Positions 2,667 through 41,134 are shown, numbered from the stretch's first letter. The stretch: 64,000 bases of DNA from a virus (IMGVR_UViG_3300009506_000084:195-64194), one strand, 5' to 3'. A program made the numbers and translations. Notes: generated by a model from the letters alone, not told the origin.

Positions 2667-4853
2667 ATGGCAACGATACAGGAACAACTCACAGACGAAC
2701 AGCAAGAGCAACTGGCAGACGGCCAGAAATCGGTCGAAGACGCCCGCAAATACTCCTTGCAGCCCAGGGCCGAAGGAGGCGGTGGCAGCCTGACCGGCTG
2801 GTGGTTCTTCCGGCGCGAATCGGAGTGGGACGTAGCGCCGTGGTGGTCTGAGGAACGCGACCGGGACTTGAGGGAGTTTGCCAAGCGAGAAGGGAACGAC
2901 ATCCTCTCCGGGGCCGTCAGCAGCATGGTCAAGAAGTTCAAGGCCATGAGCTGGAAGCTAGAAGGGCCGGAGAAGCCGGTATCCGACATGCAACAGATTC
3001 TGGCGGAGGCCGAGTTCGGGCAAGGGTGGGGTTCTCTGATTTCCCTGGTGGTGGAAGACTACTGCACCCAGGATAAAGGCGCGTTCATTGAACTCATCGG
3101 CCCCGGCGACCCGGACAAGGAAATGAAAGGGTTGCCCGTCGGCCTGGCCCACCTGGACGCGGGCCAGTGCCAGCTTACGGGGGATACCGAATACCCGGTC
3201 ATCTACCGGGGGGCCAAGGACGGCAAGGCACACAAAATCCACGACAGCCGGGTTATCCATTTGGTCGACATGAAAAGCCCGCAACAGGCTATGAACGGCG
3301 TCGGGTTCTGCGCGGTCAGCCGGGTCCTTGCCAGCAGCGAAATCCTGTTGATGTTGAGCCAGTACCGGCGCGAAAAGCTGGAAGACCAGCCGCAAGCGGG
3401 CCTGGTCCTGTTGCGGAACCTGCTCCCGTCACAGTGGGAGGATGTCAAGGCCGAGTACGAGCGAAATCGCCGCCAGATGGGGCAGGAGTTCTGGGCCAAC
3501 CTGATGGTCCTGACCAGCGCAGACCCGGAACGGCCCGTCGGCGCAGAACTCATCAGTTTTTCCCAACTGCCCGAAATGTGGGACGAACAGACAGTCATCA
3601 CGACCTACATCAACGTGGTGGCCCTGGCCTTTGGGGTCGATGCCAGGGAATTCTGGCCCATTTCGTCGGGGGCACTTGGCACCGCTGCCGAATCAAAGGT
3701 CATGCACCAGAAGGCCCGCGGCAAGGGCGTAGGCGACATTACCAGCAGCATAGAACGCGCCATTAACTGGAAAGTCCTGCCAAAGCGGGTCGAGTTCGCC
3801 TTTGACTTCCAGGACGACGAAGAAGACGACCTGCGGAGCCAGATTGAGGACCGCAAGGTTGGCACCATCATGAAGATGTGGACGCCGGAAGCGCCTGTGA
3901 CCACGGTTCAGGAAATCCGCAACATGCTGGCTGACCACACCGACTATTTTAAAGAGGACTTCCTAGAAACTGATATCACCCAGGAAACCGAAGTCACGGA
4001 CACGGAGCGGGACAAGTGGGGACCAATTGTCGTTATCGACCGCAAGGGAGAGAAGCGGCACAAGAAAGGCTACAAATTGGGGTCGGTGGCGGAAAGGTGG
4101 GGCTACAAGGCAAACCCTAGTCAGGCCCGCGTTCCCGCGGGCAGCCCTCAGGGTGGGCAATTTACCAGCGGTGGTGGTGGGGGTCTTGCCGGGTCCATTC
4201 GTCCCAATATGACGGTTGAGGAAAAGACCGACCGCAAAAAACAGCCCGTGGAAAAGGCCGTGGCCTACGGGTGGGAGGGAGCCAGGGGCGGGGTCGCCAG
4301 TATGGGCATCTACAATTACAACCAGGGAATGGACGACCTGGTCACCATATCCGAAGGGAGAGAGCTTAAGGCGATTTCGACCCTGAGTGTGACCCGGTGG
4401 GTCAATCCATACCCGGACGTGCAGGGCAATTATCGGGAAATCGGCTATCTTGCCACCAAAGAACGCGGTTATGGGCGGGCTATGATGGAAGCAGCCATGC
4501 AGGTTGCCAAGCGGGAAGGGCAAGGGGTCTTTTTGAAGTCTGTGGAAAAGGCGGTCGGGTTCTATGAGGCCATCGGCATGAAAAGGTCCACCCAGGAGCG
4601 GGTTTTCTACTTTACGCCAGAGGATGTTGCCAACCAGGTCAAGCAGGACATCGACGCATTGGAACCTGACGACGGGGTGTTCTGTGACGGAGAAGGCCGG
4701 TTGCAAGGGGAAAAACAGGGGACCGCAGCCCACGGCGACCCCTTGCCCAATTGGGAAGGGGAGGTCGAAATCACGCCAGAGCAGGTCGCGGAAGCGTTGA
4801 GGGATTGGGACAAAAAGGCCCCGCGTGGCTGGCAGGGCATTTTGGAGACGTGA
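2667..4853 (+). CDS. Portal protein with C-terminal extension (tag motif + GNAT acetyltransferase domain)
   Basis: Follows terL; portal-like features (VALAFGVDAREFW, IERAINWKVLP, FAFDFQD, TVQEIR); then WGYKANPSQARVPAGSPQGGQFTSGGGGG and GNAT motifs YLATKERGYGRAMM, AVGFYEAIGM. Confidence 0.85.
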   Translation: MATIQEQLTDEQQEQLADGQKSVEDARKYSLQPRAEGGGGSLTGWWFFRRESEWDVAPWWSEERDRDLREFAKREGNDILSGAVSSMVKKFKAMSWKLEGPEKPVSDMQQILAEAEFGQGWGSLISLVVEDYCTQDKGAFIELIGPGDPDKEMKGLPVGLAHLDAGQCQLTGDTEYPVIYRGAKDGKAHKIHDSRVIHLVDMKSPQQAMNGVGFCAVSRVLASSEILLMLSQYRREKLEDQPQAGLVLLRNLLPSQWEDVKAEYERNRRQMGQEFWANLMVLTSADPERPVGAELISFSQLPEMWDEQTVITTYINVVALAFGVDAREFWPISSGALGTAAESKVMHQKARGKGVGDITSSIERAINWKVLPKRVEFAFDFQDDEEDDLRSQIEDRKVGTIMKMWTPEAPVTTVQEIRNMLADHTDYFKEDFLETDITQETEVTDTERDKWGPIVVIDRKGEKRHKKGYKLGSVAERWGYKANPSQARVPAGSPQGGQFTSGGGGGLAGSIRPNMTVEEKTDRKKQPVEKAVAYGWEGARGGVASMGIYNYNQGMDDLVTISEGRELKAISTLSVTRWVNPYPDVQGNYREIGYLATKERGYGRAMMEAAMQVAKREGQGVFLKSVEKAVGFYEAIGMKRSTQERVFYFTPEDVANQVKQDIDALEPDDGVFCDGEGRLQGEKQGTAAHGDPLPNWEGEVEITPEQVAEALRDWDKKAPRGWQGILET

Positions 4854-4854
4854 T

Positions 4855-5400
4855 ATGAACGAAGAACAGTATGAATGGACTTTGACCGAAGAAAAGGCAA
4901 ACCCGAACCAGCCCAGGGTTCCGGCGGGTTCTCCGCAAGGGGGCCAATTTGCCAGCACTGGCGGGGGCGGGGGTGCGGGTGCCACTGCGCCTTCTTCTGG
5001 TGGAACGACAGGGGTGGTGTCATACGAGACGCACCGGAATTTGTACAAGCCTGATTACAAGGTGGAGGATGGTTTTTATCGTCCAAACCAACCAATTAAA
5101 GTCTGGATGAGAAGCAAAGAAACGCGTCCAACCAACTATTGGGTAGGTGCCTCACGAATTCACCAACCTAATTTTACTGAGTACACCACAAAACCGGGAG
5201 ATACCATCATAAAGTGGCCCGGTGGCAATTTCGTCGTGCGCAAGGGGAACACAAATCGGGAGTCGATTGTGTTTGCCAGGAGCGACAAATCGCCATTTGA
5301 GCGCAGTTATGGTCCTGGTCCTGACCGCTACATTCCCGTTGGGGCCATGGATTATATTGGGAGGAATGCTCCCACCCCCGGCCTGGGTTCGTGGGAATAA
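4855..5400 (+). CDS. Tagged candidate effector, unknown domain
   Basis: N-terminus MNEEQYEWTLTEEKANPNQPRVPAGSPQGGQFASTGGGGG, then an unrecognised ~130 aa domain. Confidence 0.75.
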   Translation: MNEEQYEWTLTEEKANPNQPRVPAGSPQGGQFASTGGGGGAGATAPSSGGTTGVVSYETHRNLYKPDYKVEDGFYRPNQPIKVWMRSKETRPTNYWVGASRIHQPNFTEYTTKPGDTIIKWPGGNFVVRKGNTNRESIVFARSDKSPFERSYGPGPDRYIPVGAMDYIGRNAPTPGLGSWE

Positions 5401-5415: not shown

Positions 5416-6051
5416 GTGGATGAACTGGTCTGGACGCTCAAACGATACGACCCCAATCAGCCCAGGATACCCGCCGGACAGAGCGGTGGCGGTCAATGGA
5501 CCGGTGGGTCTGGGGTGCTGACCGATGCAGAGCAGACCGCGGTTCGCCTCTACACATCCCAGGCATACGGCGCAATTAACAGTGATTTGCGCCGCGGCAG
5601 AACTCTAAGTGACCGCAATCAGGAAATAGTCGACAACTTGGATTCAGCCATACGCAAGTCGAAGCTGGCTCAGGATACAACTGTGTTCAGGGGGGTGCCG
5701 CAAGGGCACTCTGCGGAAACCGTGCCGATTCGGCCCCTGGACGGTAAGAGAATTGTAGAAGGGGCAGAATTCATAGAAACCGCTTATTCCAGCACATCGC
5801 GAAGCCTGATGGTCGCATGGCAAGAGGGTACGCGCAAGGCAATACCCGGTGAAGGGGTCTATTTGTTGGAGATTCGGCTGAAAAAGGGGCAAAGCGCCCT
5901 TGATACGGGGCAACATTCTGCCTGGGGTGCTGAGGGGGAATTCCTGCTGCCCCGAAAGACAAAGTTTCGCATCGTTGAACGTGATTTTGATTACGGTCGG
6001 GAAGATGATGTCCGATTGGTCTTGGAAGCAGTAGGGGTGGAGGGTGGCTAA
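5416..6051 (+). CDS. Tagged ADP-ribosyltransferase (VIP2/C3-like, R-S-E)
   Basis: Leader MDELVWTLKRYDPNQPRIPAGQSGGGQWT; YTSQAYGAINSDLR, TVFRG, YSSTS, EGEFLLPR. Confidence 0.88.
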   Translation: MDELVWTLKRYDPNQPRIPAGQSGGGQWTGGSGVLTDAEQTAVRLYTSQAYGAINSDLRRGRTLSDRNQEIVDNLDSAIRKSKLAQDTTVFRGVPQGHSAETVPIRPLDGKRIVEGAEFIETAYSSTSRSLMVAWQEGTRKAIPGEGVYLLEIRLKKGQSALDTGQHSAWGAEGEFLLPRKTKFRIVERDFDYGREDDVRLVLEAVGVEGG

Positions 6052-6673
6052 GTGGTCGTGGCGTCCAAAGCTGGCACAATTCTGGAATCGCACGGTTGGC
6101 CGACTGGTTCCCCGGTTGCAGATTCGCCAGGTTGCCAACATTGTCATCGACGCGTCCCCGGTCAAGGCCTGGGCCGCGGATGTCGCCAGTGGCCGGGTCA
6201 GCGTCGAAAGCTGGCACCAGTTCATGCGAGACGAAATCCGCCGCAACTACATCCAGCAGTACCTGGCGGGCCGTGGTGGCATCGGCAAGATGACCTTCAA
6301 GGATTGGGGCAGCATCGGCGGCATGATTACCGACCAGTACCGGTATTTGGACAAGTTCGCCGGGGAGGTCGCCGCAAATGAGCTTGGACCCGGCACCATT
6401 GCCCGCCGAGCCGAAATGTACATCAACAGCAGCCGGGAGGCATACAGCCGGGCGGAAAAGAGGGCCGTTGAGGAATCAGAACTCAGGCGCAAGGAAGTCC
6501 GGTGGGTCGAAGACCCCGTGGCGGAGCACTGCACCGACTGTGACGGGCTGGTGCTGCTCGGCTGGCAGCCGATGGACCCGTGGCCGTTCAAGAGTGGCGG
6601 CAAGGACATCTATCCAGGCAGCGGCGATACCGTCTGCCTGACCAGTTGCAAGTGCCATCTGGAGTACCGGTAA
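6044..6673 (+). CDS. MuF-like / head morphogenesis (minor capsid) protein
   Basis: Position after portal; C-terminal VRW..EHCTDC...PGSGDTVCLTSCKCHLEY. Confidence 0.7.
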   Translation: MAKWSWRPKLAQFWNRTVGRLVPRLQIRQVANIVIDASPVKAWAADVASGRVSVESWHQFMRDEIRRNYIQQYLAGRGGIGKMTFKDWGSIGGMITDQYRYLDKFAGEVAANELGPGTIARRAEMYINSSREAYSRAEKRAVEESELRRKEVRWVEDPVAEHCTDCDGLVLLGWQPMDPWPFKSGGKDIYPGSGDTVCLTSCKCHLEYR

Positions 6674-13471: not shown

Positions 13472-13686
13472 GGGGAAAGGGCGTGACCTCCACACTGGCC
13501 TTGATGGCCGTCGTGCTGCTGGCTGCGGGCATCGACCTGAACGCCCTGTTGCCTTACTTGCCGACCAGCCTGGTCCTGCCGGGGGTCGTGCTGGCGGGCT
13601 GGTTGTTGGTGGCGGGGGCAGGGTGTGGCATCATGGCCGCGGCAGCTTTTTTTGCCTTTTTGAACCGGTGGAGGCGACATGGATAG
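13468..13686 (+). CDS. Small membrane protein (2 TM, basic tail; holin-like topology possible)
   Basis: Two hydrophobic segments, C-terminal NRWRRHG. Confidence 0.45.
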   Translation: MRGKGVTSTLALMAVVLLAAGIDLNALLPYLPTSLVLPGVVLAGWLLVAGAGCGIMAAAAFFAFLNRWRRHG

Positions 13687-16001
13687 ACTAGAACTCAACA
13701 GGCCGCACGGATACTTGATGTGGAAGGGGGTCAAGCAAGCCGTGGTTAGCCCGATTGAACTGCCGACCGGGGTAGAAATGCGCGTCACCACCGGCCAGGA
13801 AGGGTTCGGGGTCGTTATCCTGGACCGCCCGGCCCGCATGATTGCCGCAGAGGTAGACAGGAAAGAGTATTTTGAGGACCACCGGGTCACCCGCAAGGAG
13901 CGGGAAGGATGGTGGCCTGATGTTGAATTTCTGTTCGTTTACCCGGTTTCCAACTTTGACGCTTTCGACCGCATCCGAAAGAAAGCCAAATTGGAGCCGA
14001 CCAATGACGCCGATTGCCCTGACTGCCTGCAAAACATAGACGGTTTGTGTCGTCTGCACGACGTGGAGTGTAAAGACGGGTATCGGTGTGACGAGTTCAC
14101 CGAGATTAAAGATTGGCGCACTGGCGAGATTGTTCAGGGCCAGGAGCCGGAAACCAAGCAGGGGCAGGAGGCCACCATGCCGTACACAATCGAAGAAAAG
14201 GGGGATGAATACTGCGTCATCAAAGAGGACACGGGAGAAGAAGTCAAATGTCATCCTACTATGAAAGAAGCCCAGGCGCACCTTGCCGCGTTGAAAATCA
14301 ACGTGGAGGAAGCGGAAGAAAAGGAGTCGGAGCCAGAACAACCCGACATCGAAGCGTTGCAGGCCCGCATTGCCGAGTTGGAGCAGAAGGCAGCGCAGTT
14401 TGACGAAAGCGAATGGGACGGGGCCGCGGCCAACTGGCCCGACACCGCCGCCTATTGCAAAAGCTGCCTCATCGACGTGAACCCGGCGGGCGAAGACAAG
14501 GTGCAGGCGCTGTGCAAGCTGCCGGTCTACGCACCTGGCAGCAAGAAGCCGAACAAAGCTGCCGTCAAGGCTGCGGGTGGCGGGGCGCGGGGCGTCTCGG
14601 CCCTCAAAAAGCCGGAGGGGGTCAGCGGGGAAGCCTGGTCGCAGGCCGTGAACGAGGCCAAGCGGCGGCTGCGGGGTTGGTGGCCGGATGCGTTCGATAC
14701 CGAACCGCCGGAGAGCCTGAAAGCCATCAAACAAGAGGAAGAACCCGCAGAGGAAGAAGCGGAAGGGGTCTGCTACTGTGCCAAGTGTGATGAGGAAGTT
14801 CCTCACATGAAAGGGACCGATTGCGCTGACCAGGCCTGCCCCAAGTGTGAAGGCCCCTTGAAAGCGGTCGAAGAAGGGGAGGCTACCGAAGAACCCCAAG
14901 AGGAAGAAAAGGCGGGCCGTCGGCTCAGGTCGGGATGGGTCAAGAAGCTGAAAGAGGCCGTGGCAACCTTGACTGAATTTCTGGGCTTTGCCGAGTATGA
15001 CGACCTGGAAGGTGGGGAGTTGGGCTGGTTCAAGAGCCAGCAAGCCAAGTTTGCCATCAAGCAAGGGCCGGACGGGGAACCCTGGGTCGTGGCCTGGTCG
15101 TCCAATGCGTTCATCGACCGCGACAAGGAGATTTTCAGCACCAGTGGCCTGGAGCGATACGTCAGGGACAACGAAGGGCGCAAGAAAAAGGGAACGTTCA
15201 ACTTTTGGCACATTCCCGGCACCGAGTACGCTGAAAAAAGGTGGCAAGGGGTCGTCGGTCGATTCCTGCTTGAAACCGGCCCGTTCCTGGACACAGCGGC
15301 GGGCCGTCAAGCCAAAGCCTTTTTCACACAATATCCGGACAATCACCCCACGATTGCCCCCGAAGGGTGGGGCACATCGGTTGAGTTTCGCTATCTGCCA
15401 GAAGAAAAAAAGAATCGCGTGTTTGAGCATTTCTGGATTACGCGGACGTCCATTCTACCCAAATTGAATGCCGCGAACATCTGGACAAAAGGAGGAATTC
15501 ACATGGCGTTGACAGAGGAACAGGAAAAGGCCCTGCGTGAGGTCTTCCCTGACAGTGCCGACCAACTCATCAAGCAAGGACAGGACCAGACGAAAGAGTT
15601 GGAGGAAGGGGGTGGCCCACAAAGAGGCCGAACCGGAAAGCGACGAAGCGGAGAAAGAATCTCAGCCGGACCCGGAGCCAGCCTTTGATTGGGACAAGCT
15701 TATCAAGGCTGTGGCGGGTGAAGTGGCCGACCGGCTGGATGTGGACGTGACCGAACCGCTGTCTAAGATGGGGCAGCGACTGGAAGAAATGGCGGACCGT
15801 ATGGACCGGTACGAGCAGGCGAGAAGCGACGAGAAGGAAGTAAGCACAACGCGATATCGCCTGTCCCTTGAGCAGAAGCAGGCGTCAGAAGCAGCGGAAA
15901 CGGTGCTGGACGACGACGACGAACTGCAAAAGGCCAAGCCAAAGGAAACCGACCCCAAAGAAAAGAAAAGCGGTGCCGACCACTTCTATCCGCCCAAGTA
16001 A
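13679..16001 (+). CDS. Multidomain prohead protease/scaffold; frameshifted near 15608 (ORFs 13679..15688 and 15537..16001)
   Basis: Directly upstream of the capsid gene; protease-like segment WSSNAFIDRDKEIF..FWH..WGTSVEF..SILP..AAN; in-frame RBS+ATG at 14177 and 15503; acidic scaffold sequence continues in the +1 frame (GVAHKEAEPES...). Confidence 0.7.
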
Positions 16002-16059: not shown

Positions 16060-17493
16060 ATGAATGAACAGGAAGTTTTGAGTTTGGTTGCGCGTGCATT
16101 CCAGCAACTGGCAGAGGGCCAGAAGGCGTCGGGGACTCCGGCGGGGTATGCACCGCTCTACGGCTCAGGCGGTCTTTTTGGCCGCTGTGACGGCCCGTCG
16201 ATGCTGGTCAACGCCATGGTTGGCCCCATCGGCGTTGAGAGCAAGTTCCAGTGGATTGGGAACGACACGGAACGGGAATTTGTTGACACCCTGACCCAGA
16301 TTCAGGAAAGCGGCAGCGAGCAATCCACCGCCTGCGGCGACTGTGTCACGGTGTATCAGAAGGCTTGTGCGCAATTCTATTGTTTCGGACGGTTTTGCAG
16401 GCAGACGCCTGAGGAACAGTTCGACAACATCGGCTTGCGCGCCAACGCCCAGGTCCCGGTGAAAACGCTGTTTGGGGCCATCACCGACGCGTCGGGCGCT
16501 GTCCTGGTCCCGATGGGCGAGACCATCAGCGACAGTTTCTATCTCATGGCACGAAGCGCGGGCTATGCGCTGCGCTTCAAGAACAGCCAGTTGATTTGGA
16601 CGGGCAATCCGGCCAACAACGCGGGCAGCTACGCCGAATACAACGGCTTGGAGCAAATCGTCAACACCGGCAAGTTCGACGCGTACACCCAACTGACCTG
16701 CACCGCACTCGACAGCTTCTTGCAGAACTTCGGCAGCAACAACCCGCAATCGGCAGGCACCTACGCCATCCAGTCCTGGTTCCGGCGCGCCGTCGGCCAA
16801 CTGATGCGCCGGGCGGGGGGTGCCAACATGGACTGGACGACCGCAAACATGTTCATCGTCATGAGCGACAACATGTGGGACTGCGTCGCCCGCACCTACG
16901 CCTGCACCGGCATGGACCTGTGCGAAGGGCTGAGCGCAAGCGCAGCCGACGCCCGCGTGATGAACCAATCCGCGGACCAGGCCCTGAACCGCTACGAGCA
17001 GTACACCAGCCAGATGCAGTTGCCCATCTACGGGCGCAACTACCCGGTGGTCCTGGACACCCAGTTGACCGAGACGACCGGCCAGCCCAACGGCGTTTGC
17101 TCCGACATCTACTTCCTCACCGAAGCCATCAACGGCGAAACCATCTTGTATGGCGAGTACCAGGACTTCAACCGCACGTATGGGCGGGTCCACCAGGAGA
17201 TGCGGGCCATGTTCGCCAGCGATGACATTGCCATCACCGATAACGGTCGGTACGCGGTCATCCGCGACAACGTCAGGGGCTGCTTCGACATCCAAATCCT
17301 GACCAAGCCGCGGCTGGTGGCCCTGGCCCCCTGGCTGTGTGCCAGAATCCAGAACGTGTGCTGCAACGTCGGTGGCGACGGGACTCCCTATCCCGACCCG
17401 ACCCTGAGCGGCACCGTCTATGAGCCGGGCTGCGGTCGCACCACGACCCCAATCCCGACCCTGTACGGGTCCTGCCCTGAGACCCTGAGCTAG
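16060..17493 (+). CDS. Major capsid protein, cysteine-rich
   Basis: Follows scaffold; strongly biased codons; IWTGNP..EYNGLEQIVNTG, SDIYFLT and KPRLVALAPWLCARIQNV are HK97-fold-like segments; followed by a terminator. Confidence 0.85.
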   Translation: MNEQEVLSLVARAFQQLAEGQKASGTPAGYAPLYGSGGLFGRCDGPSMLVNAMVGPIGVESKFQWIGNDTEREFVDTLTQIQESGSEQSTACGDCVTVYQKACAQFYCFGRFCRQTPEEQFDNIGLRANAQVPVKTLFGAITDASGAVLVPMGETISDSFYLMARSAGYALRFKNSQLIWTGNPANNAGSYAEYNGLEQIVNTGKFDAYTQLTCTALDSFLQNFGSNNPQSAGTYAIQSWFRRAVGQLMRRAGGANMDWTTANMFIVMSDNMWDCVARTYACTGMDLCEGLSASAADARVMNQSADQALNRYEQYTSQMQLPIYGRNYPVVLDTQLTETTGQPNGVCSDIYFLTEAINGETILYGEYQDFNRTYGRVHQEMRAMFASDDIAITDNGRYAVIRDNVRGCFDIQILTKPRLVALAPWLCARIQNVCCNVGGDGTPYPDPTLSGTVYEPGCGRTTTPIPTLYGSCPETLS

Positions 17494-18949: not shown

Positions 18950-19782
18950 CCGAACTGCTCATCACCACGCCGCTGTGTCTCATCCATTGGGACGGTACCC
19001 GTCCCAATATCCTGCAATCAGGCAAGCAGGAAGAAGGGAACGGCAATTTTACCGGCATTACCTGGGATGAGCGGGCGGTCTACGTCGCGTGCAGCCAGGA
19101 CTTCCGGTACGGGGTCCAGATATTTAGCCGGAAGTTCACCCAGGGCGTGTTCCTGTGCAATGACCTGCACCAGACCCATCAGATTTTGTGGGCCAACGGC
19201 GGCTTGCACCTGTGCAACACAGGCAAGAACCGAATAGAACATTGGGATGGCAAAAGCTGGACCTGGACCGCGTTCAACCCGTCGCCGTGCGACATCGACC
19301 ACCTGAACGGCCTCTGGTTTGACGGTCGGCGCTTTTGGGTGACGGAGTTCCGGCACAGACCGGAAAGGCCGTCGGTGGTCCGGGTCTGCTCCGACGACTG
19401 GCAGCTTTTGCAGACCCTGACCGTCGGCCCGCCCATCCACAACCTGTACATCGAAGGCAACTGCATGTACAATCTGGTCAGCCGACAGCCCAAGGGCCTG
19501 TTGCGCACCCGCCTGGGCACCGGCAACCAGAAAAGGCTTCCCGTCCGGGGAGAGGAAAACAACCTGGTACGCGGGCTGGCAAGGACGGCGGGTAACTGGT
19601 TCGTCGGCCTGGGCCGTTGGGAAAAGGAACGCGGCGACCGTCACAAAGGGAATGCCCAGGTTGTCATCTTGGACAACGGCTTTCGGGAAGTGGACCGCAT
19701 CGTAATCAAGGACGTGGGGCCGACCAACGACGTGCGGGTCATCGGCGAGCACGACTTCGCGCACAACGGGGTAGGGTGGTGA
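18946..19782 (+). CDS. Beta-propeller protein (DUF4915/TIGR03032-like)
   Basis: Blade-like motifs THQIL, CNTGKNRI, DHLNGLW, IHNL, VRGLA. Confidence 0.5.
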   Translation: MTELLITTPLCLIHWDGTRPNILQSGKQEEGNGNFTGITWDERAVYVACSQDFRYGVQIFSRKFTQGVFLCNDLHQTHQILWANGGLHLCNTGKNRIEHWDGKSWTWTAFNPSPCDIDHLNGLWFDGRRFWVTEFRHRPERPSVVRVCSDDWQLLQTLTVGPPIHNLYIEGNCMYNLVSRQPKGLLRTRLGTGNQKRLPVRGEENNLVRGLARTAGNWFVGLGRWEKERGDRHKGNAQVVILDNGFREVDRIVIKDVGPTNDVRVIGEHDFAHNGVGW

Positions 19783-20480
19783 GCGATTGGGAATGGCGGC
19801 TTGAGCGCAAGTACAGCCCCGACCAGCCGCGCGTGCCCGCGGGGTCGCCGGAGGGAGGGCGGTGGACGAGTGGGGGCGGCGGCATCGCCAAGGTGGAACG
19901 ACAAGGTCCGAAAGCGGTGGCTCGTTACCTCCGTTCCAAGCCTAAGTATACGGATTTCAAGGTTCTTCCCAAGGAGGAGTTCGACGAGCGGTTTGGGAAC
20001 GAGTACGGCGGCCTTACGGGCGATACTGCGGCCACCGCCCTGCGCACGGGCGAAATCTACATCAGGGAAGGAAACGAGGACTTCGCCCTTCATGAGCTAG
20101 TCCACGCCGCCGGGTTCATGCCTGACGGTGCGGGTCGCTTTCTTAACGAGGGCATGACCCAAGCCGCAGCAGAGGAAATAGGAAAGCTCGGCGGAATAAC
20201 AGTCTACCCGAGTTATGGAAAGGAACGCCGTTTCGTAGAAAAATACGTGATTCCCGCTACTGGGCTCTCAGCGCAAGAGGTGTTCCGGGGTTATGCTGGG
20301 GCGGCCCATAAGACGAGGTACCTTGTTGACTTGATTTGGAAGAAGCACGGTGACAAGTTCTCCAACGCCGAAGATTGGGGGCCTAACACGAGGAAAGGTT
20401 TTGAGCAGACGCTGGAGCAAACCATCGGTTCGAATATCTATCTCAGCTACCTGATAGACGAATTGGGAGTCGCAAAGTGA
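19779..20480 (+). CDS. Tagged zincin metallopeptidase
   Basis: Leader MSDWEWRLERKYSPDQPRVPAGSPEGGRWTSGGGG; HELVH plus downstream LNEGMT. Confidence 0.8.
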   Translation: MSDWEWRLERKYSPDQPRVPAGSPEGGRWTSGGGGIAKVERQGPKAVARYLRSKPKYTDFKVLPKEEFDERFGNEYGGLTGDTAATALRTGEIYIREGNEDFALHELVHAAGFMPDGAGRFLNEGMTQAAAEEIGKLGGITVYPSYGKERRFVEKYVIPATGLSAQEVFRGYAGAAHKTRYLVDLIWKKHGDKFSNAEDWGPNTRKGFEQTLEQTIGSNIYLSYLIDELGVAK

Positions 20481-21843: not shown

Positions 21844-22300
21844 ACTGTATTATCAGTTTCTGGCCCTGATGCCGCTGTGCTGTGTGGATGTGGCTATTGT
21901 CCAGGGCGGGGCGGTGTTACTGGTCAAGCGGGCGTGCGCCCCGGCCAAGGGGCAGTGGTGGCTGCCTGGTGGCCGCGTGCTGAAGGGCGAGACCTTGCGC
22001 CAGGCCGCGCACCGCAAGGCGGTGGGGGAAACTGGCCTGGATTGTCATGTCGGCCCGCTCATCCACAGCGCCGAGACCCTCTTTGACGACGGGCCGGGAG
22101 ATATCAGCGTTCATTCGGTCAATTCCTGTTTCCTGTTGTGGCCGAAAGAGGGAGGGCAAAAGGTCCAGCTTGACGGCCAGAGCATTGATTTCAATTGGGT
22201 CTGCGACCCCCAGGAATTCTACGAGTTAACGGAAGAAGGGGCGGAGAAGGTCAGATTGCACCCGTATGTGATGTCTTGTCTAGCAGGGGCCGGGCTATGA
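21830..22300 (+). CDS. gmm: GDP-mannose mannosyl hydrolase-like NUDIX protein
   Basis: MPLCCVDVAI..LLVKR..PAKGQWWLPGGRVLKGET; C-terminal LHPY. Confidence 0.75.
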   Translation: MVPDELYYQFLALMPLCCVDVAIVQGGAVLLVKRACAPAKGQWWLPGGRVLKGETLRQAAHRKAVGETGLDCHVGPLIHSAETLFDDGPGDISVHSVNSCFLLWPKEGGQKVQLDGQSIDFNWVCDPQEFYELTEEGAEKVRLHPYVMSCLAGAGL

Positions 22301-23100
22301 GCGACAACCTGAAATGGGTCTTGAAAGAGGAAAAAGGCGGGCGGGGGTCTGGTCACTGGGGGCATGCCGGGGACCCGCCACACCGTGGCGGCAGCGTGGC
22401 GGGCGGCGGTCACTGGACGCTGGTCAAGGTCAAATGCCCTATAAACAACCCGGTGGCCGTCGAAATCTGCCAGCGACTGACCGCGGCGGCGGAGAAACGT
22501 GGGGAATTTCCGACGACCGCAGAGGTCAAGAAGCACAACCGATACTTGAAATCTATGAGCCATGAAGAAAAAGTGGACTATATCATAGAGAAAAAGTTGA
22601 AAAGTGCCTCAAAAAAGCTCAACGCGGAAGCCGAACCTGTGTTGCGCAAGGTCTTGGAGGATTTGCCGGATGGGCATCTTGACCTAATCAGGGCAACACA
22701 GTTCAAGCTGGCCCGCAAGTGGCCGGAGGAATCTGACTACACCAGTGAAGACACAGCGGGCACCTTTTCCAGCATGAATAATGTCGTGACGGTACTCGAC
22801 AAGTACAATGACCCCGGTGTTTGGGCACACGAAATCGGCCATGCTGTCCACTACAAGACCGAGAGCCAGATTGGAGGGTATTATCAAAACACGGGCCTGT
22901 GGGGGGCAACCTGGTCGTCGCTTAAAAAGCACATGCCGACCAACTACGCCCGGACCGATGCGGCAGAAGGTTTTGCTGAGTGTTACGAGTACTATTGCAA
23001 AGGAGCCATTTTCAAGTACCAGATGAACCATGAATTGGTCCAAATTTTCGACAGGGTGTTTTCGGAACCACCCAAGAAATGGGGAGATTACATGCAATGA
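22297..23100 (+). CDS. Leader-bearing zincin metallopeptidase with an alternative Gly/His tag
   Basis: MSDNLKWVLKEEK then GGRGSGHWGHAGDPPHRGGS; HEIGH and TNYARTDAAEGFAE. Confidence 0.78.
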   Translation: MSDNLKWVLKEEKGGRGSGHWGHAGDPPHRGGSVAGGGHWTLVKVKCPINNPVAVEICQRLTAAAEKRGEFPTTAEVKKHNRYLKSMSHEEKVDYIIEKKLKSASKKLNAEAEPVLRKVLEDLPDGHLDLIRATQFKLARKWPEESDYTSEDTAGTFSSMNNVVTVLDKYNDPGVWAHEIGHAVHYKTESQIGGYYQNTGLWGATWSSLKKHMPTNYARTDAAEGFAECYEYYCKGAIFKYQMNHELVQIFDRVFSEPPKKWGDYMQ

Positions 23101-30534: not shown

Positions 30535-30535
30535 C

Positions 30536-34095: not shown

Positions 34096-34096
34096 G

Positions 34097-34960: not shown

Positions 34961-34978
34961 AGTAAAAGGGTATAAAAC

Positions 34979-35152: not shown

Positions 35153-35154
35153 AG

Positions 35155-35832: not shown

Positions 35833-35833
35833 C

Positions 35834-37694: not shown

Positions 37695-37695
37695 A

Positions 37696-38430
37696 ATGGA
37701 ATATATCGTGGTAGGCACCCATGAATACGAATGGGCGACGGCCGTTTTTGCCCGCCTGTTCAACAAGTATTGGAATTCAGTGACCCCGGTCACCTACTGG
37801 TGCGACCGGGAACCCAAGGTCAGGCTGCCCGACAACTTCACGGCCCGCCAGGTCCCGGCCTACAAAGAAGGCATCTGGCCGTGGAACAACTGGTTCAGCA
37901 ATGGATTGAAAAGCATCTTGGAGACGTTAAGGGAGCAGCATGTGGCCCTGTTTCTGCCCGACCACTGGCTTTCAGCGCCCGTGGACCTAATCGGCGTGGA
38001 GCAGATGCACCGCTACATGATGTTCAACGAAGACGTGCTGCGCGGCAACCTGACCGCCGGGACATGCCTGGATGGATATGGTATAATAGTCAAGTGGCTT
38101 GAGGGTCGCCGGGTTGTGCAGGTTTCCCCGACCGACGCTCATTGTGCGCTGTACGGGGGGCTGACCTTCTCCCCGGCCCTTTGGGACGTTCGGAAGCTGG
38201 CGTCCCACCTGGAATCAGGGTGGAACCTGTGGATGACGGAGAGGGTCGGGACGGAAAAGATGGCAAGAGAAGGGAAATGGCGCTCGGTCGGCATCCTACC
38301 TGCCCCACTTGAAAGGACACACGGGCTGAGCCAGCGAGAGCCGCGCACGGCCTTTTTGAACGGGTTGCAGCCAGAGGACCGAAGGATGGTCATAGACATG
38401 TTGCCAGAAGGATGGAACTATCGTGATTGA
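37696..38430 (+). CDS. GT-A-like glycosyltransferase
   Basis: LFNKYW, FSNGL, LFLPDHWL, PALW, WMTE. Confidence 0.55.
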   Translation: MEYIVVGTHEYEWATAVFARLFNKYWNSVTPVTYWCDREPKVRLPDNFTARQVPAYKEGIWPWNNWFSNGLKSILETLREQHVALFLPDHWLSAPVDLIGVEQMHRYMMFNEDVLRGNLTAGTCLDGYGIIVKWLEGRRVVQVSPTDAHCALYGGLTFSPALWDVRKLASHLESGWNLWMTERVGTEKMAREGKWRSVGILPAPLERTHGLSQREPRTAFLNGLQPEDRRMVIDMLPEGWNYRD

Positions 38431-40285
38431 CCTTTCGATTGTGACCGGAACCTACAATCGCATAGACCTGTTGCAGAAAATGGTTGCATCGGTAAGAAGC
38501 TCGGTCACACCCAGGGAGACGCCCATCGCCCGGTTTGAGGGGCTGACCTGGGAGATTATCATCGTAGACGGCGGCTCAACCGACGGCACCCAGGATTGGG
38601 TCAGGCAGCAACCGAACTGCCGCCTCATCGAGCATGGCAAGCTGCTCGGTGCGGTCAAGGCGTTCAACGACGGGGCCAGGGCTGCCGGCGGCACCTATGT
38701 GGTCCTGGGCAACGACGACGTGGAATTCCTGGACGACGCCCTGTGGCGGGCCTGGCTGTTCATGCAGACCTACCCGATTGTCGGTATGGGCTGTTTCTAC
38801 CAGGACCGCAGCAATCCGGGCAAGCCACCTGCCCCGTGGCACGTCGAGCAGATGCCAGCGGTGGCGGAGCAGGACGGCCAGTATCGCCCGGTCCACGTCG
38901 CCTACGGCCAGGTGTGCATCGTTCCCCGCGAACTGGGCAACGCCCTTGGGTGGTGGGGCGACTATTTGCACACCTATGGGGGCGACAATGAACTGTCGTC
39001 CATGGTGTACGAGAGCGGGTACAAGGTGGTCCCGCTGTATTGGGGGCCAGACGTGTCCCCTCCCGTGCGCGGGGCAGACCCGCGCCACATCGCCAAAATC
39101 CACGACAACAAGCCAGATGACGCCCTCAGGAAATTGAACAACATTGACGGGGCCAGCGACCCGCGGGGCGTCGGCCCACGGGGGGCGCGGAGCCATCCTG
39201 ACTCTTTTGCCTGGGGGCGCAAGTGGACCCAGCGCTGGCGGTCCATGGGGCGGCGCGACCTGGGCGGGCCAGAGATTCGGCACCGGCCCCAAATTGCCCT
39301 TACCTTGCCGGAAGTCGAGCGGTTTTTGTACCTGCCCATCTACGAGCACGGATACCCGGTCCAGCAGCAGCAGAAGCGGGGATTGCGGGAAGCCCTGGGC
39401 CGCGCCGGGGTTGTGGCTGAGTATGATTATGTCACGCGCCACCGCAACGGGGCTGACCTATTTGCGGAATTGCGGGATATTTGCGGGTTGTTCGGGCCAA
39501 CCGTTGTCCTGACGCAGCTACACGGCCCGGACCCCATCGGCCCGGACCTCATCGGTCGGTTGCGCGGGGAAGCGTTGGGGGCCTGGTTCGTCAACTGGAA
39601 CGGCGACTTCTGGCCGCAGAACCTGCTGTCTGACGGCGGGGTGGCGCTGGCGCGGGCGGTTGACCTGCAACTGACGGTCAACCGGGAGGTCTTGGAGGAA
39701 TACGGCAAGCTGGGCGTCCAGGCCGGGTACTGGCAAATCGGGTGGGAGCCGGACGGGGTCGGCCACGAACCACGCCCGGAGGACCATTGCGACATTGTCT
39801 TTCTAGCGAACGGGTACAGCCGGGAACGGACCCGTTTTGTCGACCAACTGCGAAAGCTGCCGTACAACTTCCGGCTGTGGGGCAGCGGATGGCCTCAAAG
39901 CTATACGGTCGGCCATTGCACCTACGATTTTATCACTGCCTGTCGGGCGTACCGGGGGGCGCGATTCTCCATTGGGGACAGCCAGTGGCCGGACAGCGGG
40001 TTTGTCTCCAACCGGGTCATGCAAGCCCTGGTTGCAGGCGGGTCGGCGCTATGCCACCAGTGGTTCCGCGACATGGAACATTTGGGCCTCATCGACGGGG
40101 AAACCTGCATCGTGTGGCGCGACTTCGGGGAATTGAAGGACAAGCTGCATTACTACAGCCAGGATGAGGGCAAGCGGGCGCAGATTGCAAAGGCCGGGGA
40201 ACAACTGGCGTTGGAGCGCCACAGCTTCGACCAGCGGGTCCATGAGCTGATGACCATGAAACCGACGGCGGGAGATTGGCGATGA
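38423..40285 (+). CDS. Bifunctional glycosyltransferase: GT2 + CgeB-like GT-B
   Basis: LSIVTGTYNR, IIVDGGSTDGT, GNDD, YGGDNEL; then DIVFLAN, SNRVMQAL, ERHSF. Confidence 0.85.
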   Translation: MIDLSIVTGTYNRIDLLQKMVASVRSSVTPRETPIARFEGLTWEIIIVDGGSTDGTQDWVRQQPNCRLIEHGKLLGAVKAFNDGARAAGGTYVVLGNDDVEFLDDALWRAWLFMQTYPIVGMGCFYQDRSNPGKPPAPWHVEQMPAVAEQDGQYRPVHVAYGQVCIVPRELGNALGWWGDYLHTYGGDNELSSMVYESGYKVVPLYWGPDVSPPVRGADPRHIAKIHDNKPDDALRKLNNIDGASDPRGVGPRGARSHPDSFAWGRKWTQRWRSMGRRDLGGPEIRHRPQIALTLPEVERFLYLPIYEHGYPVQQQQKRGLREALGRAGVVAEYDYVTRHRNGADLFAELRDICGLFGPTVVLTQLHGPDPIGPDLIGRLRGEALGAWFVNWNGDFWPQNLLSDGGVALARAVDLQLTVNREVLEEYGKLGVQAGYWQIGWEPDGVGHEPRPEDHCDIVFLANGYSRERTRFVDQLRKLPYNFRLWGSGWPQSYTVGHCTYDFITACRAYRGARFSIGDSQWPDSGFVSNRVMQALVAGGSALCHQWFRDMEHLGLIDGETCIVWRDFGELKDKLHYYSQDEGKRAQIAKAGEQLALERHSFDQRVHELMTMKPTAGDWR

Positions 40286-40527
40286 CCTTGTGTCGACAAC
40301 GCAACGCCGGGTCCAAATTGCACCAGGTCTATTGCGACCTTTGCGCCGAGATGTTTGAATGGCCCAAAGGGGAAAAGGTGTTTGGGTTCTGTGATACCTG
40401 CGGGCGTGCAACCTGGTGTACCGACGTGGTCCTTTCTGGATTGCCCTACGCAATCACGAAACCTTACGGGAGAACATTTGGTGATGAGCGGGAAAGACAA
40501 GCAGCAATGGCGGCTTACCAAATATAG
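40276..40527 (+). CDS. Small Cys-rich hypothetical protein
   Basis: CDLC..CDTC; operon packing. Confidence 0.4.
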   Translation: MAMTLCRQRNAGSKLHQVYCDLCAEMFEWPKGEKVFGFCDTCGRATWCTDVVLSGLPYAITKPYGRTFGDERERQAAMAAYQI

Positions 40528-41134
40528 CGCCAACCAACCGAGAATTCCCGCGGGCCAGACCGGGGGTGGTCGCTGGACCAGCAGCAGCTTGCGGATAGAG
40601 GAAATTAAAGACACTCATCGGGAAATAGCCGCATCCGAAATCGACCGGGAATGGGTTGGAACGCGGAAACAGGTAGGGGTCGCCGCAATGCGCCTGCTTG
40701 CAGGTAGACCCATCGCCCTGTATGATGGGGATGAACTGGTCGGCGCGGCCAACCTTGCCCACTCAACCAGCCCTGTCCGGGTTCAAAATTGGGACGGGCC
40801 GTGGGGCATGGAAGTTTACTGGCTGGCGACCAAGCGCAAGGGTTATGGCAAGCAAATTTTGGAGGCCGTCCGGCAAAAAGCGGCCAGTGAGGGAGAAACC
40901 ATCTGGCTTTCCTCCTACAAGGACGCCCGCCCATTCTATGATGCAATGGGCATGAAAAGGGTCGGGCCGGAAAGCAGTCGTTACTTTTATCCCAAAGAGG
41001 GGGAAAAGAAAAAGGACAAGATTGAAGTGTTGGAACCGGAAGAAGGGGTTTTTGCTGTCAAGGAAGATGAGTGGGAAACAGAAAAGGGGCAATTGGGGTG
41101 GAGCCTAACCAAAAAGGAGGGCAACACGACATGA
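40484..41134 (+). CDS. Tagged GNAT acetyltransferase (paralog of the portal C-terminal domain)
   Basis: Leader MSGKDKQQWRLTKYSANQPRIPAGQTGGGRWTS; WLATKRKGYGKQIL, ARPFYDAMGM, LEPEEGVF. Confidence 0.82.
   Translation: MSGKDKQQWRLTKYSANQPRIPAGQTGGGRWTSSSLRIEEIKDTHREIAASEIDREWVGTRKQVGVAAMRLLAGRPIALYDGDELVGAANLAHSTSPVRVQNWDGPWGMEVYWLATKRKGYGKQILEAVRQKAASEGETIWLSSYKDARPFYDAMGMKRVGPESSRYFYPKEGEKKKDKIEVLEPEEGVFAVKEDEWETEKGQLGWSLTKKEGNTT

Follow-up and report, generated by a model that had tools for sequence, protein, structure and literature searches.

What is the role of a short peptide that recurs near the start of otherwise unrelated enzymes in one phage genome, and once more inside the portal protein of the same phage? 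The question is raised by a 64,000-nucleotide stretch of viral DNA (the window), which is nearly the whole 64-kb genome of a tailed phage and encodes a terminase large subunit (TerL), a portal, an S78-like protease, a major capsid protein (MCP) of the HK97 fold, a tape measure protein, and tail proteins. An original prediction, made from this DNA, held that the peptide is a portable tag which loads exchangeable enzymes into the phage head for injection. Here, we follow the tag through the window, its relatives, and public sequence data, and weigh the functions that it might have.

The tag and the proteins that carry it

Eight proteins encoded on the plus strand of the window have the common motif K-[YF]-x-P-x-Q-P-R-x-P-[AK]-G-x3-G-G-[QR]-[WF], with a Gly-rich spacer after it. 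When all six frames were scanned for Q[PA]R[VIWLM]P, exactly eight sites appeared, all on the plus strand (Q codons at 4122, 4909, 5458, 19824, 27735, 34139, 35206, and 40535), and all fall within signatures quoted in the original prediction. A tag HMM, built from the eight window tags and applied to every six-frame ORF in the genome (64,194 bp), scored these tags at 55.4–72.3 bits, with the next best ORF at 9.9 bits. The prediction had counted nine modules with one two-part signature, which is true of eight. The ninth (22297; genes are named here by their first position) has the leader, MSDNLKWVLKEEK, and then GGRGSGHWGHAG and a stretch ending in GGGHWT. Since it is missing the tag core and received no score in the six-frame HMM search of the genome, we treat it only as a degenerate or partial member.

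The copies are conserved as peptides, as had been proposed. Mean pairwise nucleotide identity among the 19-codon tag cores is 0.60 (range 0.49–0.74), and the longest exact DNA run common to any two of the 120-nt tag regions is 12 nt. The same codon is used in 124 of 331 same-residue codon pairs (0.37, with 0.42 expected from genome codon usage), that is, synonymous sites are randomised. The window tags are under peptide-level selection. In the seven free-standing proteins with a full tag, the tag K is found at residues 6–14, with 5–13 residues before it. The gene starts on which these positions depend were well placed: with degenerate 22297 counted, a purine-rich run lies upstream of all eight free-standing genes, and database gene calls match seven of the eight starts (P0102, P0105, P0116, P0128, P0135, P0155, and P0156). 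Five of the eight abut or overlap the previous ORF (gaps of 1, 15, -4, -4, and 1). The motif had no match in Pfam, NCBIfam, or PDB, and no paper describing it was found.

Table 1. Head genes and tag-related genes of the window
Feature	Position	Strand	Evidence or detail
Terminase large subunit	760..2247	+	phrog_9 3.1e-22, plus five other TerL PHROGs
Portal (about aa 1-470) + tag + putative C-terminal GNAT, 728 aa	2667..4853	+	Located after TerL
Tag core in portal gene, K481 to F499: KANPSQARVPAGSPQGGQF, then GGGGG	4107..4163	+	Tag HMM 55.4 bits
Free-standing tagged protein, 181 aa, unknown domain	4855..5400	+	Tag core 4894-4950
Free-standing tagged ADP-ribosyltransferase (ART), 211 aa	5416..6051	+	Tag core 5443-5499; ADPrib_exo_Tox 1.3e-21
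Small Cys-rich head protein in MuF position, candidate MuF-like protein	6044..6673	+	phrog_24776, function unknown
669-aa protein: acidic scaffold-like middle, S78-like prohead protease at about aa 445-640	13679..15688	+	Atlas features, structure
Major capsid protein, HK97 fold	16060..17493	+	AF2 model, Foldseek
Free-standing tagged protein, 233 aa, HELVH motif	19779..20480	+	Tag core 19809-19865
Ninth module, 267 aa: leader, Gly/His-rich stretch to GGGHWT, HEIGH metallopeptidase-like domain	22297..23100	+	Degenerate tag
Free-standing tagged kinase-like protein, 263 aa	27687..28478	+	Tag core 27720-27776
Free-standing tagged ART-like protein, 287 aa	34097..34960	+	Tag core 34124-34180
Free-standing tagged ADP-ribosyltransferase, 225 aa	35155..35832	+	Tag core 35191-35247; ADPrib_exo_Tox 3.9e-35; phrog_3895 7.6e-23
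Free-standing tagged GNAT acetyltransferase, 216 aa	40484..41134	+	Tag core 40520-40576; Acetyltransf_10 4.4e-6, above gathering score

The head genes were assigned from several kinds of evidence (Table 1). The portal had no direct portal match in Pfam or PHROG, and comparison with an alignment of HK97-type portal ORFs by hhalign gave a probability of 91% (E 1.1e-6). It is 47–52% identical over the alignment (53–57% in the search) to the portals of five close relatives, whose open frames of 498–544 aa have no C-terminal extension. No sequence match to the 669-aa protein was found in Pfam or PDB; its protease assignment comes from Atlas features (score 0.94, 15 of 30 matches in PF04586 clusters) and from structure (TM 0.58 to PF04586 clusters), and 49 of its homologs adjoin MCP homologs. 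For the AF2 model of the MCP (pLDDT 65.8, pTM 0.65), the best Foldseek PDB matches are phage capsids and encapsulins (E 4e-10, probability 1.0), and the protein has 201 homologs, with 55–72% identity among the 120 listed. A MuF-like identity for the 6044 protein is a lead only. It had no Pfam match, and 23 of its 30 feature matches (Atlas score 0.94) fall in a PF04233-carrying set; in the cluster displayed, 18% of members have PF04233. It also matches the N-terminal half of a fusion protein in the relative G004 (blastp 4.8e-5).

The domain calls of the original prediction stand for the ARTs at 5416 and 35155 and the GNAT at 40484, and are weak for the kinase, the two peptidases, the third ART, and the portal GNAT. 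The kinase-like protein (27687) weakly matches PI3_PI4_kinase (2.1e-5, below the gathering score) and TIGR03843 (9.7e-8, far below the cut-off). Gene 22297 weakly matches ATLF (7.6e-4, below the gathering score), while 19779 has the HELVH motif only, with no domain family match in Pfam or NCBIfam. The 34097 protein had no Pfam match and is called ART-like from profile–profile comparison only (63% probability and E 7e-5 in hhalign against the ART family, in which the R / S-x-S / E-x-E positions line up). The portal GNAT (Pfam 2.6e-4, below the gathering score) is a paralog of the 40484 GNAT, to which it is 32% identical. No match to the 4855 protein was found in Pfam, PHROG, or NCBIfam; a tagged homolog, P0136, is 52% identical to it. 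Each of the eight free-standing proteins (108–320 aa class) has at most one domain, and the portal–GNAT protein is the sole fusion.

Accessory genes with fused counterparts

A tag search that recovered 14, 5, and 6 copies from three tag-bearing records gave 0 for five whole related records, three of them complete. The five close relatives mentioned above are tagless, and MCPs in their loci are 58–62% identical to that of the window. Insertion sites were judged against two relatives compared in full (G005 and G006). None of the eight free-standing genes (degenerate 22297 counted) has a homolog in either, whereas the flanking genes do. For example, 19779 is absent from both and its neighbours, 18021 and 20477, are conserved there; 22297..23100 is likewise absent from both. 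By this comparison, the free-standing genes (seven tagged plus 22297) are accessory insertions at no fewer than six sites in a backbone that tagless relatives also have.

Alignments place the enzyme domains of these genes elsewhere as portal-fused or MuF-like-fused modules, and the free-standing window proteins have homologs among the modules of one portal-fused polyvalent protein of a related phage. The 27687 protein aligns with the last module of a 1658-aa portal–polyvalent ORF of G001 (33% identity over 220 aa, 4e-21), and the 34097 protein with the C-terminal half of a MuF-like fusion in G004, a tagless relative (35% identity over 221 aa, 3e-30). The 34097 domain is thus found in three states: in a tagless MuF-like fusion (G004), as a module of a portal–polyvalent protein (G001), and free and tagged in the window. 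It is homologous to modules in P0021, P0015, P0046, and P0020, and the 5416 ART to repeated modules in the polyvalent proteins P0123 and P0097; overall, window proteins align to modules of P0020, P0021, P0015, P0123, and P0097. The original prediction saw the free-standing enzymes as taking the place of fusions to MuF, and G004, in which a 34097-type domain is fused to a MuF-like head protein, bears this out.

Association of the tag with head proteins

A tag profile search of 1.84 billion representatives returned 4177 clusters of tag-bearing proteins (50% identity) at E ≤ 1e-3 and 225 at E ≤ 1e-10. On re-scanning, 135 of the 150 best matches carried 2–10 tag copies, with a median spacing of 254 aa and about 257 aa after the last copy. 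Going by these matches, the element is mainly an inter-module junction, present in 2–10 copies within giant polyvalent proteins, which corrects the earlier reading. The first tag K lies no more than 15 residues from the start in 31 of 148 top matches, including five window and 26 non-window proteins, and N-terminally tagged proteins include polyvalent proteins of up to 2078 aa. Pfam domains in the top 30 tagged proteins were ADPrib_exo_Tox (10), ART-PolyVal (9), GNAT (4), and Zeta_toxin (3), together with NUDIX, PARP, Acb1, topoisomerase IB, Portal_Mu, and Phage_portal_3. The proposal that all cargo enzymes modify proteins does not extend across this family, whose domains include RNase A-like toxins, NUDIX, Acb1, topoisomerase IB, and Zeta-toxin kinases.

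The tag is placed after portal, MuF, and S78 prohead protease domains, between polyvalent modules, and at the N-terminus of free-standing proteins. All ten ORFs picked by size and tag position were Pfam portals in which the tag comes just after the portal domain, and among the 120 matches listed, precomputed Pfam annotations included PF04860 portal (6), Portal_Mu (1), PF04233 MuF (3), and PF04586 S78 protease (2). A portable peptide element tied to head proteins is the part of the capsid-cargo prediction that these fusions uphold, and the link between tag and head cargo is well supported by comparative genomics. Since the same peptide joins enzymes to head-interior proteins in other phages, the tag probably marks injected cargo; it may itself direct packaging, or be cleaved. 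Head genes were not recognised near every tagged locus. Among loci of at least 10 kb, seed searches found no portal or TerL within 10 kb for 23 of the 39 from bacterial genomes and 16 of the 53 from viruses; with few portal and TerL seeds in use, the number of loci without head genes is an upper bound. A conserved Bosea locus contains no phage genes and no PHROG matches, and is adjoined by TauE and pseudouridine-synthase genes.

We lean, by a small measure, towards the view that the window proteins are unbundled head-internal effector modules, for which the tag would serve as docking signal and release. Tagged proteins would be synthesised late, taken into the procapsid, and delivered to the host by ejection together with the DNA, and every module, fused or free, would require the tag. 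Its likeliest role would be docking to a component already present in any HK97-type head, coupled to proteolytic release by the prohead protease, following the logic of the T4 capsid-targeting sequence. Pure targeting does not explain why tags are kept before every module of portal-anchored polyvalent proteins, and pure cleavage does not explain why they are kept on free-standing proteins. A co-evolved receptor is unlikely, because the tag accompanies four or more portal families and two or more MCP types and is missing from close relatives with a 59% identical MCP. The loci without recognised head genes, bacterial, viral, and Bosea, count against this view, as do the weak domain assignments of several window proteins and the portal 3' remnants among the 'free' tagged ORFs of Methylocystis-type prophages.

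A bolder version, in which the 19-residue motif alone, as a portable signal, would suffice for loading and release in HK97-type heads, we regard as possible though doubtful. The signal would work in any such head because it exploits an ever-present component. For instance, the tag, acting as pseudo-substrate for the S78 prohead protease, might be carried into the procapsid and then be cut at maturation. If this were true, a phage could gain injected effectors gene by gene, anywhere in the late operon, and adding the tag would suffice to load any protein.

Effector delivery via portal, MuF, or polyvalent proteins is of an already known kind. [quoted passage not shown] Giant phage proteins are likewise the best tag matches; their domains include ART-PolyVal, ART, GNAT, Zeta toxin, NUDIX, and Acb1, and some are fused to portals. 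The window enzymes are homologous to modules of this kind, occur in a phage with TerL, portal, and MCP, and would share the predicted fate. However, the window modules are separate genes with one domain each, apart from the portal–GNAT fusion, whereas P0001–P0030 have the two to fifteen domains per polypeptide that define polyvalent proteins. In the searched passages of PMC5512222, a repeated junction motif goes unmentioned and the word 'linker' appears 0 times. A tblastn search with a 50-aa tag gave no credible match in conjugative plasmids.

MuF- and portal-anchored polymorphic toxins (Zhang et al. 2012, PMC3482391) also resemble the tagged family, in which head proteins have variable C-terminal toxins, MuF, portal, and protease fusions bear the tag, and orphan cassettes form arrays. 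In the window, ART, GNAT, kinase-like, and HExxH domains are encoded in the head-gene region, with 4855 and 5416 between the portal and the MuF-like gene. Unlike these toxins, no tagged window protein has PF04233 and the seven free-standing ones are without a MuF or portal domain; the 19-residue motif replaces the anchor, while G004 keeps a MuF-like fusion for the same domain. MuF- and portal-anchored toxins are said to have been treated by Jamet et al. in 2017 as well.

In T4, internal proteins and the ART Alt bear a short N-terminal capsid-targeting sequence, are packaged (in a scaffold-dependent way) and injected, and have this peptide removed at [LI]-x-E by the gp21-type (S77) prohead protease. 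The window tag is similarly a short N-terminal peptide common to unrelated proteins, an ART among them, whose packaging is predicted. The T4 sequence is mentioned in PMC9503650. The two peptides have no sequence similarity, the window protease is S78-like rather than of the T4 gp21 type, and most of the conserved part of the window tag comes after the putative K cut site. The window element is also used as an internal repeat. Encapsulin cargo-loading peptides and the C-terminal capsid-targeting tail of the HK97 protease are terminal peptides that direct cargo to the lumen of an HK97-fold shell. They resemble the tag as a short peptide with a flexible Gly-rich spacer on diverse enzymes, and the window MCP model matches both capsids and encapsulins. 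In contrast, the window tag is N-terminal or internal and has no motif similarity to them, and its binding to the shell is hypothetical.

Alternative roles for the tag

The tag could be a processing site only, with polyproteins divided into their modules by the prohead protease or by an HExxH peptidase packaged alongside. On free-standing proteins it would then be a leftover without function in loading, or would only trim the leader. The regular spacing of about 254 aa between modules fits this idea, as do the presence of the tag between anchor and effector and the form of the motif, which begins sharply at K(-5)/[YF](-4) and has another aromatic residue, [WF](+13), ahead of the Gly spacer. 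S78 proteases occur both in the window and at tag-bearing loci, with 42 ORFs at the latter, and autoproteolytic processing of polyvalent proteins has been proposed (Iyer et al. 2017, PMC5512222). We nevertheless judge it unlikely that processing is the whole function. The seven free-standing tags are under peptide-level selection though just 5–13 residues lie upstream to be removed, a conserved core of 19 residues is long for a cleavage site, and the residues before the K carry little information.

Polymorphic toxins have pre-toxin junction motifs, such as VENN of CdiA and DPxGL of Rhs, and a cognate immunity gene beside each toxin. The tag could be a motif of this type, a border for swapping effector cassettes by recombination, with no part in packaging. 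It stands directly after portal, MuF, and protease domains and before unrelated variable ones, and the variable C-terminal domains always begin right after tag and spacer. At one locus of a Methylocystis MAG (L090), a portal–tag–toxin gene is followed by three ORFs that repeat the last 100–160 residues of the portal and the tag and then diverge; two of these three orphans are 85–90% identical in DNA to the portal 3' end (over 300 nt), so that they retain a conserved upstream piece with DNA homology across the motif. Judged from such cases, many 'free-standing' tagged ORFs in alphaproteobacterial prophages are displaced portal 3' ends, or orphan cassettes, and as portal 3' remnants those of Methylocystis-type prophages may not be expressed. 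The window differs. Its tag regions share at most 12 identical bases and average 60% identity, too little for homologous recombination, yet the peptide is conserved, and its genes have their own starts with short leaders. The tag also sits on phage head proteins, unlike the pre-toxin motifs, and a role confined to cassette exchange is in our view quite improbable.

A non-capsid route or target (export or trafficking outside phages, or docking to a host hub after entry) would suit the 23 bacterial loci without recognisable head genes nearby and the Bosea locus, but is more improbable still, given repeated fusions to portal, MuF, and prohead protease, all capsid-interior proteins, cargo enzymes too diverse for one common host target, and a headless-locus count that is an upper bound from few seeds.

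As a separate observation on gene neighbourhoods, a DUF2019 gene comes after the tagged ORF at locus L083.

Tagged accessory genes in a conserved late region

The window is taken from a single virus record of 64,194 bp, of which it covers bases 195-64194; no terminal repeat or clean circular junction was found in the record. Its large open reading frames (ORFs) all lie on the plus strand, and its GC content is about 0.6. Eight sites carry the signature of a leader followed by the tag, a Pro/Gly-rich core with a Gly-rich spacer, exactly as the original prediction described. A tag profile built from these eight copies scores them at 55-72 bits, compared with at most 10 bits for the rest of the genome. 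For the ninth proposed module, gene 22297 (free-standing genes are named here by their start), only part of the signature was recovered: the leader (MSDNLKWVLKEEK) and a Gly/His-rich stretch ending in GGGHWT are present, while the core is missing and is not scored by the tag HMM. The claim that conservation is at the peptide level is borne out by comparison of the 19-codon cores. Their mean nucleotide identity is 0.60, and among 331 codon pairs encoding the same residue the codon is identical in 124 (0.37), where codon usage predicts 0.42.

In the free-standing proteins, the tag begins almost at the N-terminus. A purine-rich run lies upstream of every proposed start of these genes, five of these eight genes adjoin or run into the preceding ORF, and database gene calls agree with the proposed starts for seven. 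Scanning positions 19000-38900 for promoters and terminators gave no sign of separate transcription units, with 11 promoter-like sites (7.1 +/- 2.4 expected) and 14 terminator-like sites (21.2 +/- 5.0 expected).

Close relatives of the phage lack the tag altogether. It was detected neither in 54 IMG/VR loci comprising a homolog of the window's major capsid protein (MCP) and 10-kb flanks, nor in five whole related records, three of them complete with terminal repeats, whose MCPs and portals are 58-62% and 53-57% identical to those of the window. The same kind of search finds 14, 5 and 6 tags in three tag-bearing records. The portals of these tagless relatives close with a short C-terminal helix; at the position of their end, the window continues with ERWGYK, the tag, GGGGG and a GNAT domain. 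Every window ORF was also compared with two complete tagless relatives, G005 and G006. None of the eight free-standing tagged genes (counting the degenerate 22297) has a homolog in either, and homologs were found for the flanking genes 18021, 20477, 21797, 23360, 26119, 28666, 33550, 35929, 38423 and 42082. It follows that the tagged genes are accessory and were inserted into a conserved late region at six or more places.

Distribution of the tag and its effector modules

A search of 1.84 billion representative proteins with the tag profile matched 4177 clusters at E<=1e-3, a number that falls to 225 at E<=1e-10 and to 23 at E<=1e-30. The majority of the thousands of tag-bearing clusters have no known family. 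The top-scoring proteins are 1000-4000 aa long and carry many copies of the core. When the best 150 listed were re-scanned, 15 had one copy and 135 had 2-10, with a median spacing of 254 aa between copies and a median of 257 aa after the final one, which indicates a (tag-domain)n architecture. Pfam domains in the top 30 include ADPrib_exo_Tox (10), ART-PolyVal (9), GNAT (4), Zeta_toxin (3), DUF3626 (3), NUDIX (2) and PARP (2), along with Acb1, topoisomerase IB, Portal_Mu, Phage_portal_3 and HINT (one each). These giant multi-tag proteins are phage polyvalent proteins of the type described by Iyer et al. 2017 (PMC5512222). A word-index search with one tagged protein as the query returned 3 proteins, and with the tag alignment as the query, 120 were listed.

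Across 714 unique instances, with R(+2) required by the anchor pattern, the motif was tabulated position by position. Frequencies in its upstream half are 0.63 for K(-5), 0.89 for [YF](-4), 0.79 for P(-2), 0.94 for Q(0) and 0.93 for P(+1). Downstream, they are 0.99 for P(+4), 0.92 for [AK](+5), 0.99 for G(+6) and 0.97 for G(+10)/G(+11), followed by [QR](+12) at 0.86, [WF](+13) at 0.96 and a Gly-rich run to about +21. Residues upstream of the K carry little information. The tag is covered by no Pfam-A match in any tagged protein, and has no NCBIfam match and no PDB sequence match at E<=10. With 38-aa and 50-aa tags, tblastn of 50,697 GenBank phage records gave nothing at E<=0.01 (best E=1), and against plasmids it gave two matches only, both on Mb-size replicons (Methylobacterium and Shinella), short Pro/Gly-rich queries being weak in both searches.

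Sequence comparison suggests that the free-standing tagged genes of the window are unbundled modules of fused effector proteins. The kinase-like protein 27687 matches the last module of a 1658-aa ORF (33% identity over 220 aa, 4e-21) in G001, a related 101-kb record estimated to be complete. This ORF carries four tags, and its N-terminus is homologous to the window portal (34% identity, 1.5e-72). The remainder of the 14 tag matches in G001 are in separate ORFs across 7.5-82 kb, so the window is not alone in its scattered layout. For the 34097 protein, matches were found to modules of this same G001 ORF and of the database proteins P0021 (three modules), P0015 (three) and P0046, and each of the two window ADP-ribosyltransferases (ARTs) matches four modules of P0123 and of P0097.

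A further state of the 34097 domain is seen in G004, a tagless related record. There, the gene after the portal (L180:3005-4390) encodes a 462-aa protein with a Cys-rich MuF-like domain, a Pro/Lys-rich linker and an ART-like domain. Residues 234-453 are 35% identical (3e-30) to the 34097 protein downstream of its tag. Residues 7-195 match 189-aa post-portal ORFs of G005 and G006, and the N-terminal region also matches the N-terminal parts of tag-bearing ORFs in four other loci, where the tag lies at about residue 250, and weakly (4.8e-5) window ORF 6044-6673. In the Atlas, a resource of protein feature and structure clusters, 23 of 30 matches of this N-terminal family fall in a set with PF04233, a domain carried by 18% of the members in the displayed cluster; this suggests a MuF-like family, as a candidate only. 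Taken together, these comparisons place one effector domain in three states: a tagless MuF-like fusion (G004), a tagged module of a portal polyprotein (G001) and a free protein with an N-terminal tag (the window). The proposal of free-standing tagged cargo in place of a MuF fusion has its counterpart in this MuF-like fusion of G004.

Two kinds of free-standing tagged ORF can be distinguished. In the first, the leader is short (for example MDALIKY..., MYEILKF... and MDGYEWRLEVKY...), and the first tag has its K among the opening 15 residues; this applies to 31 of 148 top matches, five of them the window's own, and includes polyvalent proteins of up to 2078 aa. In an alphaproteobacterial set, the tag is that near the start in only 8 of 106 proteins. 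The second kind is exemplified by a Methylocystis sp. MAG (L090:7062-13500), in which three ORFs come after a portal-tag-toxin gene. Each repeats the last 100-160 residues of the portal together with the tag, and then diverges into a different C-terminal domain. For two of the three, the DNA is 85-90% identical to the portal 3' end. The array has the orphan-cassette layout known from polymorphic toxin loci, and lies inside a prophage head module, upstream of an S78 protease. The window genes belong to the short-leader kind, and are not orphan cassettes. One database protein, P0028 (465 aa), contains two complete leader and tag units, one at residue 1 (MGDYVWRIDVKY...) and the other at residue 186 (VGDYVWRLDVKY...). 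It resembles a pair of neighbouring tagged genes read as a single one, or the product of a very recent fusion.

Head genes and the genomic neighbourhood of the tag

Structural and associated genes of the window
Feature	Position	Strand	Basis
TerL (terminase large subunit)	760-2247	+	phrog_9, 3.1e-22
Portal with tag and C-terminal GNAT	2667-4853	+	Portals of relatives, hhalign
S78-like prohead protease domain	C-terminal part of ORF 13679-15688	+	Atlas
MCP	16060-17493	+	AF2 model against PDB; homologs
Glycosyltransferases, epimerase, radical-SAM protein	36.3-43.5 kb	+	
Tape measure	48163-52668	+	
Dit, then tail proteins downstream	52634-53620	+	

A megablast search of window positions 1-25000 against GenBank phages gave no match. 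The portal has no direct family match in Pfam or PHROG, and an AF2 model from 7 sequences (mean pLDDT 37.1) was too poor for a fold search. Its identity rests on related-record portals, with its N-terminal 470 residues being 53-57% identical to 498-544-aa ORFs of five records, and on hhalign against an alignment of HK97-type portal ORFs (probability 91%, E 1.1e-6). The MCP has no Pfam, PHROG or PDB sequence match; 201 homologs were found, with identities of 55-72% among the 120 listed, and PDB matches of its AF2 model (pLDDT 65.8, pTM 0.65) are phage capsids and encapsulins (E 4e-10, probability 1.0). The protease domain looks like an S78 prohead protease on Atlas evidence, its sole support (feature score 0.94, 15 of 30 matches in PF04586 clusters, structural TM 0.58). 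Pfam, PDB sequence search and jackhmmer did not recover the S78 link, and a single-protein scan of viral contigs gave no homologs of the protease, which were collected via MCP-based loci.

The 669-aa ORF that bears this domain has a Cys-rich N-terminal part and a very acidic Glu/Lys-rich middle, and overlaps ORF 15537-16001 in a different frame (local AT skew 0.30 over 13679-16001). A fusion of scaffold and protease, or a scaffold gene with a frameshift, may account for this arrangement. Upstream of TerL, ORF 60-905 contains a zinc-finger-like motif, CPNGRCRMHGG, and in our own reading is probably a putative small-terminase-like protein. It is 47% identical to an ORF of G001 and absent from G005 and G006, and the comparison of tagged and tagless genomes gave no other extra gene common to the window and G001 only. 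Record bases 1-194, just outside the window, code for the C-terminus of a third GNAT paralog, whose N-terminus and any tag are missing from the record. Between this end and the other, at window positions 62984-64000, there is no terminal repeat and no clean closure. Positions 36324-43461, inside the late region, encode a radical-SAM/B12-binding protein, two glycosyltransferases and an NAD-dependent epimerase, a cluster that may modify virion or host glycans; the 620-aa glycosyltransferase and ORF 42082 are kept in tagless relatives.

The MCP N-arm (residues 22-41, positions 16123-16182) reads K-A-S-G-T-P-A-G-...-G-G-L-F-G and shares with the tag the K-to-GG (15 residues) and K-to-aromatic (18 residues) spacing. 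K22, G37, G38, L39 and F40 are invariant among 32 homologs, and residues 13-54 have an AF2 pLDDT below 50. This likeness may be due to chance and was dropped as evidence, the tag HMM giving the MCP no score. Complex prediction from an alignment of the window MCP and one of the tag (118 sequences in the latter) scored 0.00 and returned no answer.

In other genomes, the tag can be linked directly to portals. Scanning IMG/VR gave 145 confirmed sites in 77 loci, many with 2-7 tagged ORFs on a single strand. Ten ORFs picked by size (630-870 aa) and tag position (residues 470-610) all proved to be portals by Pfam, nine with PF04860 and one with PF06381. In each, the tag comes directly behind the portal domain, and two have a C-terminal RNase A-like toxin domain. 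Among the 120 listed proteins, precomputed Pfam domains include portal PF04860 in 6, Portal_Mu with ART in 1, MuF PF04233 in 3, and RNAse_A_bac in 17 altogether, 2 of them with S78 prohead protease PF04586, in addition to Zeta toxin, topoisomerase IB, DUF3626 and others. Named source organisms in this set are Methylocystis, Methylobacterium and Pseudolabrys, and scanning bacterial genomes with a narrow pattern yielded 48 loci, almost exclusively in Alphaproteobacteria.

Proximity of the tag to head genes holds in part: among tag loci of at least 10 kb, a small set of seed profiles detected a portal or TerL in 37 of the 53 from viruses and in 16 of the 39 from bacteria. A recurrent tagged ORF of about 245 aa in Bosea (L120:9866-10600, L108, L110, L113, L121 and L122) has TauE and pseudouridine-synthase genes as neighbours, with no recognisable phage gene within 10 kb; one such Bosea locus compared with PHROG gave no match. 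These loci, the head-gene counts and the GenBank tblastn result weigh against a strict head link.

A possible docking and release signal

Proteins injected by phages set the first minutes of infection, including host takeover and anti-defence. To our knowledge, their route of entry into the head is established only for T4, P1 and a few others. In T4, a capsid-targeting sequence combines docking in the assembling head with proteolytic release.

Several simpler roles for the tag can be weighed. Loading alone leaves unexplained why the tag persists before every module of portal-anchored polyproteins, and cleavage alone leaves unexplained why it persists on free proteins. A recombination junction does not fit the DNA of the window, in which the longest identical DNA stretch between any two window tag regions is at most 12 bases. 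Nor can the tag be a mere linker, as it is conserved on free-standing proteins, where there is nothing to link. As each of these readings is insufficient, we favour a combined signal that each module would need whether fused or free. By analogy with the T4 sequence, the tag would dock its module within the assembling head, with docking coupled to proteolytic release. Its receptor would be a generic, pre-existing feature of the head, because phages whose MCP, portal and protease are very similar differ in whether they have the system, and because the tag occurs with several portal families. The S78 protease is a candidate receptor, and recruitment by the anchor's own tag is another candidate route.

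Delivery of effectors by portal, MuF and polyvalent proteins is already known from earlier work (PMC5512222, PMC3482391, PMC9503650). Neither the motif conserved at these junctions nor its use as an N-terminal tag of scattered single-domain genes turned up in Pfam-A, NCBIfam, PDB sequences or the literature searched; no paper describing the motif was found, and supplementary alignments could still show it. One peptide connects three known carriers (portal fusion, MuF fusion and polyvalent polyprotein) with a fourth, free-standing tagged genes dispersed along the late operon. If it is a loading or release determinant, it would provide a rule by which the injected effectors of metagenomic phages could be recognised from sequence. 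It would also account for gene-by-gene turnover of effector repertoires, from none in close relatives to eight or nine in the window phage, and offer a small tag with which foreign proteins could be brought into phage capsids. What is packaged, and how, would then be open to reporter-fusion tests. The mechanism is testable and potentially useful.

In Afipia birgiae (L083:10675-11115), downstream of TerL and portal, a DUF2019 gene (2.5e-42) directly follows and overlaps a tagged ORF, and may be an immunity gene.
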